From Pseudobdellovibrionaceae bacterium (GTDB taxonomy: Bacteria > Bdellovibrionota > Bdellovibrionia > Bdellovibrionales > Bdellovibrionaceae): a DNA stretch of 24,472 nt. Below the pieces are notes generated by a model. It saw only the letters and a program-made list of their open reading frames with translations. It ran no database searches and was not told the origin of the DNA. Made by a program: the position numbers and the translations under genes. The stretch covers positions 1-24,472 of the forward strand of contig JBGGMM010000134.1 of assembly GCA_041288045.1 (NCBI GenBank), read 5' to 3'. This document shows positions 11,853-14,023 of this stretch, in pieces; position 1 is the stretch's first letter; the number at the start of each line of letters is the position of its first letter.

Positions 11853-12084
11853 TCAACTCCAGAGCAACTGCCAATCGGCTGTCGAAAGCCCTCTCAATCT
11901 TTGCTTGGAGTACTTGATCTCACCTTTCGCCTCTTTCTCATTGAGCCTGATATAATTCCTAACCGTGAGATAAGCCTTCCAGCCTTTCACGATGCGTGTG
12001 AAAGGCCGAAATTTCCAAAGCTTGGTCTTCCTTCCCCCTGTCTTTGTGGGGACTTGTCTTGATCCCGTAGTTGGGTGGGGGGTA
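11853..12084 (-). pseudogene. 3' fragment of an HUH/Y1 (IS200/RAYT-like) transposase gene interrupted by the IS110 element
   Basis: Encodes TPHPTTGSRQVPTKTGGRKTKLWKFRPFTRIVKGWKAYLTVRNYIRLN..., the LW..RPF.R and Y-x3-N catalytic region of Y1 transposases. Joins in frame to 13526-13905. Confidence 0.85.
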
Positions 12085-12091
12085 TCGTCTG

Positions 12092-12103
12092 TGAAAAACA
12101 GCA
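12092..12103. repeat. Subterminal inverted repeat, right end (TGAAAAACAGCA)
   Basis: Exact reverse complement of 13509-13520; 4 nt from the core. Confidence 0.92.
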
Positions 12104-12412
12104 AGAAAAAAATAAAAGTTTCCCCTAACTTGATCCTAGCTCAAATTCATCCATAAACTATTTGCTTTCGTCTCTCTCTACGCGGTGAAGATGATCTTTT
12201 CTAATGGACACATCTTTGATGCCTTTTCGTTTGCATTCAATCGTCTGTTAGGTGCCTCAAGGGCCATTCCATTCATTGTGGATATATGCGGAAGTCGGGA
12301 CAGTCGGTCACACTGAACCTGTCCTTTTTTCAAAGACGGTTACCATACCCATGGTCCTCTTGCTTCCATCCTGCCAAGACTCCTCATTCCTCGAAGAGAA
12401 CTGATAGGAAAA
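12104..12412 (-). ncRNA. Putative bridge RNA/seekRNA of the IS1111-type element (exact ends unknown)
   Basis: Non-coding region 3' of the recombinase. On minus it contains GGGTAT (12345-12350) and GTGACCGA (12304-12311), matching the two strands of the target, and ACAGACGA (12241-12248) and ATGT (12210-12213), matching the two strands of the circle junction. Each pair flanks a hairpin and is closed by a stem (folded by eye). Confidence 0.82.
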
Positions 12413-13432
12413 CTACTTCGGTAAATTCTCTAAAATTAAATTTTCATCGTATGCCTTTTTGTTCTTAACAATGCTCAAACAAATCGAAGCGACCTTGCGA
12501 GCCAGTGCTCTTCTCGCTACTCGTTTGTCGAGATTCTTTTTCTCAATGGATTCTAGGTAGAACTTTTTGAGTGCGGTTTCTTTTCCCATAATGATATTTA
12601 TCGCTGTTCCCAGGAAAGCCTCTTTAAGCTCCGATCTCCCATGAACAGAGCGGATTCTCACGGTAGCTCCATCACTTTCATCTCGATACTTAACAAGCAT
12701 CGAATACGCCCAAAGATGATGCTTACTCTTAAACCTTTTCCCATCACCAAGCCAAGCTGCAATCACATGGGCTCTGATGGGACCGATACCAGGAACTGAT
12801 TGCAATAACTCAACGGTAGAAAGAGCTAAAGTGTTGCTCTCAAGTAAAGCCTTAAACTCTGCGACCTGCCTATTCTTTTCGACAAGCTCAACAGACATTT
12901 TCTGAGCAACTAATTTTTTAATGGGATTTTCAATAAGTTCAAAAACTTCTGGCTTCTCCCAAAATCTTCCCCGAGTCTCTACGACAACAGCTTCAGAACG
13001 AAGTAAAGCTTTCAAATTCTTTCTCAGCACCACAAATCGACGAGAAGTATCAGTGTAGTATTTTACAAAAGCTCTGGAATCAAATTCAGCTGAATCACTG
13101 TGATGAACCTGAGTTAAATTTCCAGCCTTAAGCTGCATGGCCAAATGAAGTGCATCTCGATAGTCAGATTTAGGACCTGTCTTTTTGGGTAAGTAATTTG
13201 GATTGCAAATAATGAGTTCATCAACGCAGTCCTTCATAAAGCGATAGGCCCAGTGAGATGTATTTGTTTCTTCAAAAACAAGCTTTTTTACACCTGAAAT
13301 GCTTTTCAGAAAGCTTTTGATTTCTGCTTTTTTCGTGGCCATTTTTTTCTGATGGGTAATTTCGCCATCATCATTAAAAATCACAAAAGTTGATGTTTTA
13401 CTATGCAGATCTAATCCGATATAGTTCGTCAT
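12413..13432 (-). CDS. IS110-family recombinase (DEDD RuvC-like domain plus Tnp20 domain), 339 aa
   Basis: YIGLD (D8), VFE (E54), KSDYRDA (D90, D93), SVPGIGP, RFKS, AYSML..ES(253)DG, ALARK; AAGGAG RBS; no frameshift or internal stop. Confidence 0.95.
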   Translation of the reverse strand: MTNYIGLDLHSKTSTFVIFNDDGEITHQKKMATKKAEIKSFLKSISGVKKLVFEETNTSHWAYRFMKDCVDELIICNPNYLPKKTGPKSDYRDALHLAMQLKAGNLTQVHHSDSAEFDSRAFVKYYTDTSRRFVVLRKNLKALLRSEAVVVETRGRFWEKPEVFELIENPIKKLVAQKMSVELVEKNRQVAEFKALLESNTLALSTVELLQSVPGIGPIRAHVIAAWLGDGKRFKSKHHLWAYSMLVKYRDESDGATVRIRSVHGRSELKEAFLGTAINIIMGKETALKKFYLESIEKKNLDKRVARRALARKVASICLSIVKNKKAYDENLILENLPK

Positions 13433-13508
13433 GCAGTCTCCTTGGTGAATAGTTCGTTGTAAAAACCATTCTCTGGGGCTCCTGGTTGCTTTGGCAATCA
13501 GGAGCGAC

Positions 13509-13520
13509 TGCTGTTTTTCA
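13509..13520. repeat. Subterminal inverted repeat, left end (TGCTGTTTTTCA)
   Basis: Exact reverse complement of 12092-12103; 5 nt from the core. Confidence 0.92.
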
Positions 13521-13525
13521 TAATG

Positions 13526-13905
13526 TCGGTCACGAGCAACTTATTCTTCCCGAACTCCTGGGCGATTTGTCCTGCCACAACTCTTAGAAAATGCTGAGCG
13601 AGAGATCTTTTCGAGATTCTGATCAACAAATGAATGTGATCTCCACAAATGGCTTTCTGCTCGATTTTCACAAAGAACTTTTTCGAATAGCGCTTGAGCA
13701 CTCTTTCACAGATGGAAAAAGCAAGAGGTGAGCGAAACCCCCGGCGCATCCCAAGGCGATCAGCTTTCAGCACCAAATGAATGGGATCCTTCGAAGATAA
13801 AGACCTGGCACCACGGCCCAAGCGTTTTTGTCGTAAGATCCCGCCGTGTGTGTAGCGGAATTTCCAGTGAACTTTTCCAAATTCAAATCCTAGTTGGTGA
13901 CCCAT
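13526..13905 (-). pseudogene. 5' fragment of the HUH/Y1 (IS200/RAYT-like) transposase gene
   Basis: MGHQLGFEF...PIHLVLK...DHIHLLIR (HUH motif)...LLVTD; GGAGG upstream. It now reads into the IS end and stops at 13498. Confidence 0.87.
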
Positions 13906-13910
13906 ACCCC
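13897..13910 (+). repeat. 14-bp motif GTGACCCATACCCC, an inverted 13/14 copy of the reconstituted IS target GTGACCGATACCCC
   Basis: Read directly at 13897-13910 (+), overlapping the Y1 ATG (13903-13905). The other copy is on minus and is split by the IS. Confidence 0.75.
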
Positions 13911-14023
13911 GAAGAACCTCCATGACAAGCAGGGAGTGCAAGCCCAAGGCAGGGTTCAAGGCCAATCAGCGAGAGGAGAGAGCAAAGAGTGTCCGAAGGT
14001 CGATGGGAAAAGGAAAAGAAAGC

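Follow-up and report, generated by a model that had tools for sequence, protein, structure and literature searches.

Why should the last base of each long guide in a bridge RNA match the product of recombination rather than its substrate? The question is raised by an insertion sequence on a 24,472-nucleotide contig of a Pseudobdellovibrionaceae bacterium (assembly GCA_041288045.1, contig JBGGMM010000134.1; the whole stretch is the window analyzed here), in which both junctions between element and host recur inside the element as exact 9-mers. All four 9-mers were confirmed, at 12084-12092 and 12240-12248 for one junction and at 13525-13533 and 12303-12311 for the other. The original prediction put the chance of such a recurrence at about 0.1%, and first-order Markov resampling of the 309-nt region that holds the internal copies gave close values (0.17% and 0.04%), but this null overstates the surprise. 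A bridge RNA should in any case match at 8/9 positions, which leaves the ninth base as the one to be accounted for, and for the ninth-base claim alone we would put the chance in one copy at about 1/16.

The element and the gene that it interrupts comprise the following features.

12088-13528, minus strand: IS110-family insertion sequence of 1,441 bp, delimited by empty paralogous sites and by a contig joint that skips 1,441 bases
12413-13432, minus strand: DEDD bridge recombinase of 339 aa, recognized by PF01548 and PF02371, by homolog alignment, and by HMM alignment to IS621
13509-13520, minus strand: left sub-terminal inverted repeat of 12 bp (perfect inverted pair I11)
12092-12103, minus strand: right sub-terminal inverted repeat of 12 bp (the other member of I11)
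13529-13965, minus strand: 5' part of the interrupted host gene, a Y1/RAYT-like HUH transposase, from a weak Pfam Y1_Tnp match (E = 7e-4, below the cut-off)
11853-12087, minus strand: 3' part of the interrupted host gene, from the ORF translation, with the frame running on in the paralog C41

The Pfam domains, core, and guides place the element in the IS110 family (PF01548, 40.5 bits; PF02371, 41.3 bits; both above the cut-off), although its recombinase falls below the cut-off of NCBIfam NF033542 (118.6 versus 140). Traits of that family are present in the form of a DEDD RuvC domain and a Tnp domain with catalytic serine, scarless insertion at a short core, and four guide segments. Residues D8, E54, D90, D93, and S253 of the recombinase are invariant in an alignment of 60 homologs, and its nearest named loci belong to Bdellovibrionota. 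No relative was confirmed in viral contigs. The host gene has 10 further tblastn matches in the genome, and in C41 the frame is open across the insertion site. The element, which could be impaired, is the sole copy in a genome that is 83% complete.

Because the ninth-base claim hinges on the register in which the junctions are read, it is the empty sites that decide it, and they give the following assignment.

13525-13533, minus strand: left junction, 5 host bases (13533-13529) and the donor-type 4-nt overlap (13528-13525), from empty sites and the contig joint
12084-12092, minus strand: right junction, 5 element bases (12092-12088) and the target-type 4-nt overlap (12087-12084), from empty sites and the contig joint

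The uninterrupted target 12-mer has 15 copies in the genome, 3 of them (C2, C41, and C108) in paralogous flanks. The empty-site joint of 12084 to 13526, with 1,441 bases skipped and 3 letters ambiguous, occurs in one contig of run X1 and one of run X3 (soil); with 82% likeness and short sides, these contigs are probably paralogous empty sites and not excision products. An alternative register, with an empty site 3 bases longer, was rejected; its 14-mer has no copy in the genome. In the register adopted, the core common to both junctions is 3 nt (12085-12087 = 13526-13528), and the base directly beyond it differs between them (13525 at the left junction, 12084 at the right). Each guide has the base of the partner DNA at this position, and the original reading, in which the ninth base of each long guide fits the recombination product, thus agrees with the register taken from the empty sites. 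With the overlap positions named o1 to o4 in the direction of the element, and the donor-type overlap assigned to its left end, the ninth base is o4.

The predicted circle junction, when counted off from the repeats, has a symmetric 4|4|4 layout (4 bases, a 4-base overlap, and 4 bases), and a -35/-10 pair with 17-nt spacing and 7/12 consensus matches can be read across it. The circle joint itself was not among the matches listed for three contig sets, which as such cannot show absence. The 15 genomic copies of the target 12-mer compare with 0.08 expected; some of the sites lie in Y1/RAYT paralogs and some in a short repeat family (e.g., C2, C41, C108, C192, C119, and C231). Two homologous elements, L013 and L063, use the same target, which looks like a REP-type target.

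The recombinase gene, on the minus strand, is followed downstream by a 309-nt noncoding region (12104-12412) in which we predict the bridge RNA, with these parts.

12232-12372, minus strand: predicted core of the bridge RNA, in which a common stem carries both loops, from a conserved scaffold with covarying stems, within the noncoding region 12104-12412
12343-12351, minus strand: target loop 5' arm, the complement of the target overlap and right target, pairing with the top strand, from its scaffold position and a perfect overlap in L013 and L063
12303-12311, minus strand: target loop 3' arm, with 5 staying bases, 2 core bases, and the putative handshake dinucleotide 12304-12303
12267-12275, minus strand: donor loop 5' arm, pairing with the top strand, from homolog alignment
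12240-12248, minus strand: donor loop 3' arm, with 5 staying bases, 2 core bases, and the putative handshake dinucleotide 12241-12240

Each loop has two 9-nt arms made of 5 staying bases and the 4-nt overlap. The 5' arms are complementary to the top strand, and the 3' arms have top-strand sense and so pair with the bottom strand. The 9-mers are the 3' arms of both loops and occupy fixed columns of the scaffold alignment, with the handshake dinucleotides in columns 108-109 and 208-209, followed by a closing UG; the actual guides for the top strand are found on the 5' side of the 9-mers (12351-12343 and 12275-12267). At the ends of the 3' arms, position 12303 in the target loop is donor-type and position 12240 in the donor loop is target-type. 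Short IS621-like right guides at 12281-12284 and 12207-12210, which lack a handshake match, were considered and rejected, as the first is a near-invariant scaffold word that ignores the target. A consensus fold from 15 sequences, one of them misaligned in the 5' part, has compensatory changes in 10/18 pairs and leaves o4 unpaired in both 3' arms. The single-sequence fold of the noncoding region is not better than those of its shuffles (z = +1.30), and no Rfam family matched the predicted RNA. Among the sequencing runs listed with a match, none was of RNA.

Both 5' arms are weaker in this copy than in its closest relatives. That of the target loop has one core mismatch and one distal mismatch, and that of the donor loop, which adjoins a 3-nt insertion relative to homologs, matches at 3/5 staying and 1/4 overlap positions. 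Run X1, which may be the sample of origin, has an identical contig across the region.

For comparison, 202 homologous loci were gathered, and those that retained both ends and had legible arms (57) were entered in a table. Two of these were dropped (L067, with a suspect flank, and L163, a second copy of L153), which left 55 elements that form 37 clusters at an identity of 70%. Of about 45 near-identical Acidobacterial copies, L050 and L124 were kept; exact duplicates and partial loci were omitted, and the best plasmid matches (ISSso6-like, 375 aa), whose arms did not resolve, were excluded from the counts. Three automated arm finders proved noisy; arm positions were combined from their outputs and partly set by hand in knowledge of the junctions, and 23/55 elements gave a usable target 5' arm. 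Left junctions carry the overlap of the element and right junctions that of the host. The tree requires 4 changes of donor o4 against 23 of target o4, which indicates that the left overlap is borne by the element and that calling one overlap donor and the other target involves no circularity. L153 and L163, copies of one element, differ at the right overlap only.

Donor and target are identical at o1 in 44 of the 55 elements, at o2 in 48, at o3 in 29, and at o4 in 7, a profile that fits a 2-nt core with 2 handshake positions. The 48 elements in which o4 is informative behave differently in the two loops. In the target loop, the 3' arm carries the donor-type base in 46, the target-type base in 1, and neither in 1, and over all elements it tracks donor C in 39/41 and donor T in 13/14 (the exceptions are L093, L096, and L056). 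L104, an environmental homolog, shows the C/T pattern the other way round. The 3' arm of the donor loop carries the target-type base in 28 and neither in 20, is donor-type in 0/55, and mismatches also in 7/7 elements whose donor and target are identical. Its base is A in 43/55, the other 12, non-A bases equal the target in 11 cases, and 17 of the 28 product matches come by way of the default A. Conservation of the product match, proposed as a check on the original prediction, is thus strong in the target loop and only partial in the donor loop, where the conserved rule is avoidance of a pair with the element's own donor more than a match to the product. The product-favoring, handshake-like reading itself gains support, as o4 is nonrandom across homologs and unpaired in the consensus fold. 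The target 3' arm of L093 ends in the base of the right junction and not the left, the sole clear reversal among the 55.

The remaining arm positions have a consistent polarity. The 5' arms are opposite to the 3' arms at o4 (donor arm donor-type in 46/48; target arm target-type in 15/19, with 23 arms usable), and o1 of the donor 5' arm agrees with the donor in only 15/55. At o3, the target 3' arm is donor-type in 22/26, and the donor loop, unlike a handshake, is donor-type in 10, target-type in 7, and neither in 9. When the overlap pairs are counted after exchange, the 3' arms gain pairs in 47 elements, are unchanged in 8, and lose pairs in none (n = 55), and the 5' arms never gain (0/23). Permutation gives p values of at most 0.003 over cluster draws, which kinship among the elements makes overstated; tree-aware tests, with at best 3 independent pairs per contrast, are not significant (p = 0.25 to 1). 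None of the donor-T and donor-loop-G contrasts on the tree is opposite in direction.

What can be said of the mechanism leans on IS621. According to the text of PMC11208158, the strands of IS621 are cut 4 nt apart, the overlap consists of a 2-nt core and two handshake positions, the 3' arm carries the handshake guide (HSG), and the only donor-loop (DBL) base to block recombination is one that pairs with the donor; in the accounts of these guides (PMC11208158 and PMC13626964), postexchange handshake pairing promotes insertion and preexchange pairing locks the complex. By analogy, we think it likely that the ninth bases are the handshake guides of a mirror-image bridge RNA, with homology to IS621 pointing to bottom-strand transfer. 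The bottom strand, with which the 3' arms pair, would be cut first, 3' of the overlap, through a phosphoserine at S253, as the IS621 mechanism suggests. The 4-nt end would then swap loops and gain pairs, from 6 to 8 Watson-Crick pairs over both overlaps in this copy, and this gain would favor insertion, disfavor excision, and leave both junctions fixed in their bottom-strand version. In the target loop, the base would be tuned to the fixed donor, and the donor-loop base would mainly shun the donor pair, with A as its default. The absence of donor-type bases at donor-loop o4 (0/55) fits the IS621 rule that a donor-pairing base blocks recombination. Bottom-strand transfer, moreover, would leave the donor overlap on the left and the target overlap on the right, as seen here, whereas top-strand transfer would leave the reverse, as in IS621. 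Transfer of a single strand has parallels in the preprint texts, which describe integration of CazIS110-1 as mainly one-stranded and report that a single strand is excised in IS621.

Alternatively, the top strand might be cut first, as in IS621, with the ninth bases driving a later bottom-strand exchange that resolves the Holliday junction. The ninth bases do pair with the bottom strand, the bottom-strand exchange of IS621 is so far uncaptured according to the text of PMC11208158 and of a preprint, and the frequent distal mismatches of the 5' arms (such as those at donor o1) could ease release of the top strand. We nevertheless regard this order of events as unlikely: the bases sit on the 3' arm, which in IS621 holds the strand cut first; the 5' arms gain no pairs, so that a top-strand-first exchange would be without drive; and the junctions carry the bottom-strand version, where an exchange of both strands would be expected to yield a heteroduplex giving both. 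If this reading were nevertheless true, it would represent a control of directionality at an exchange step that is uncaptured for bridge recombinases in the literature consulted.

It is also doubtful that the ninth bases serve RNA structure or protein contact and not DNA pairing. In that case, the target-loop base would pair inside the RNA with the 5' arm of the donor loop, and the base in the donor loop would be a drifting scaffold A. The best intramolecular partner of target-loop o4 is indeed o4 of the donor 5' arm (0.91; C-G in 37 and U-A in 12), and the predominance of A at donor-loop o4 would suit a scaffold base. This complementarity is forced, however, since both arms read the donor on opposite strands, and the consensus fold pairs neither base. 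Where donor-loop o4 is not A, it agrees with the host target in 11/12 cases, over about 5 to 6 changes on the tree, and the U columns that would partner it best are near-invariant and lack covariation. Finally, it seems very improbable that the 3' arms read the inserted junctions as 9-bp substrates in excision or half-match reactions and thereby aid excision, for although each 3' arm fits one junction 9/9 in this copy and the text of a preprint reports donor-loop-only excision of IS621, the locking of the IS621 complex by preexchange HSG pairing means that a 9/9 junction match should suppress excision, and the donor-loop base fits the junction in only 28/55 elements.

Several homologous loci have features of their own. 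A sister subclade (L014-L016, L064, L065, L068, L069/L070, and L072) appears to be inserted in a conserved motif, with wobble positions at o1 and o4; from the translated motif, its flanks hold what we take to be serine recombinase (resolvase) genes. A further subclade adjoins tRNA-Ser genes on the opposite strand (L076, 1798-1887; L091, 2374-2466), and in L091, whose right end is missing, the tRNA directly follows the donor 3' arm. Beyond the right end of L067 and of L026 lies another copy of the downstream region of the same element, which in L067 starts at the overlap of the target 3' arm; this arrangement may be either a half-match rearrangement or a misassembly. L181 and L041 have internal deletions of the bridge RNA, that of L181 lying between repeated scaffold words of both loops, and group II introns lie inside the bridge RNA region of L201 (961-1205) and L166 (2606-2841). 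A Bdellovibrionota subclade (L003, L149-L154, and L163) has little target specificity past the 2-nt core, and its o3 and o4 vary freely.

To place the mirror-image arrangement among canonical IS1111 elements, we gathered members with IS4321 from R751 as the query and accepted 8/15, a set in which the target arm of L211 was picked one base off register and that of L226 fits the flank at 3/5. In these 8, target o4 is donor-type in 6/7, donor o3 is target-type in 6/7, and donor o4 is donor-type in 0/8; IS4321 and L210, which carries the published ISEc11 target, fit the same four-arm scheme. Ten distinct elements, drawn from 31 loci, make up an Acidobacterial canonical set. Here, target o4 is donor-type in 2, target-type in 2, and neither in 4, and donor o4 is donor-type in none. 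At o3 of this set, the target loop is donor-type in 6/9 and target-type in 0, and the donor loop is target-type in 6/9 and donor-type in 0. By these counts, canonical IS1111 elements have the same polarity, weaker at o4, with the weight of o3 and o4 varying. A 3|4|3 junction fits IS4321 and 6 others of the 8 accepted (L210 has 3|4|2), and such a symmetric junction, with the donor overlap on the left, would account for the 7- and 3-bp ends of IS1111. Ten Acidobacterial genomes, when searched, yielded 2 matches.

The element shares with IS1111 its 12-bp perfect sub-terminal repeats, its long downstream noncoding region, and a top-strand complement lying 5' of the bottom-strand match. It departs from the IS1111 group in its terminal extensions, which are 8 and 4 bp here and 6 and 2 bp in other members of the clade, against 7 (or 6) bp on the left and 3 bp on the right. 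Full-length kinship with the IS1111 transposase is absent, the alignment to IS4321 covering 49 residues only, and in place of the G, P, and G of the motif GL-P----S(t)G the recombinase has M, K, and D. In a quick tree of 70 proteins, which omits L050, L124, and L190 as short, its clade stands apart from canonical IS1111 and ISSso6-like proteins, a placement that carries a long-branch warning and was made without an IS110-group outgroup.

Compared with IS621, as the text of the published accounts describes it, the element has the same two loops of two arms and the same 4-nt overlap; in both, the 3' arm ends in a dinucleotide whose pairing increases after exchange, and one base in the donor loop has to stay unpaired with the donor. 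By the definition of a handshake guide, the position and the gain in pairs agree and pairing with the top strand does not. The original suggestion that the bases might be placed differently from those of IS621 therefore does not hold within the RNA, where both are the last base of the 3' arm (82/167 in IS621), but it does hold for the DNA strand. Unlike in IS621, the RNA is downstream of the recombinase, reversed guide order makes the handshake arm pair with the bottom strand, it is the 3' arm that forms the long guide with the good match, and the donor overlap is at the left junction. The texts consulted establish handshake guides in IS621 and call them conserved among IS110 elements, for which a covariation signal is reported at the proximal handshake base (81/166); here it is the distal base (82/167-like) that discriminates.

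Among IS1111-type elements, those with seekRNAs (ISEc11, ISKpn4, ISPa11, and IS4321) have sub-terminal repeats, a downstream RNA, and a top-strand complement on the 5' side, as here, and their guide order is given as reversed in the text of PMC11187229, a description that includes neither a donor loop nor a handshake. They differ in their extensions (7 and 3 versus 8 and 4 bp), and our recombinase is on a separate branch. The bridge RNAs predicted for ISCARN28, ISAzs32, and ISPa11 (PMC11208160) similarly lie in the right end and have donor guides in a multi-loop; handshake bases are not mentioned in the text, and guide order may stand in a figure. In the literature searched, mostly open-access text without figures, we found no description of handshake guides for IS1111-type elements, and the text of Siddiquee et al. 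leaves open whether the reversed guide order reflects a different IS1111 mechanism. Our comparison suggests that IS1111-type elements are the same machine read on the other DNA strand, a model that yields the testable prediction of bottom-strand transfer and shows which guide bases must be set when such elements are reprogrammed. Judged from the sequences, the device is a known one in mirror orientation: the handshake is known from IS621 and the reversed order from IS1111, and the joining of both is the extension made here.
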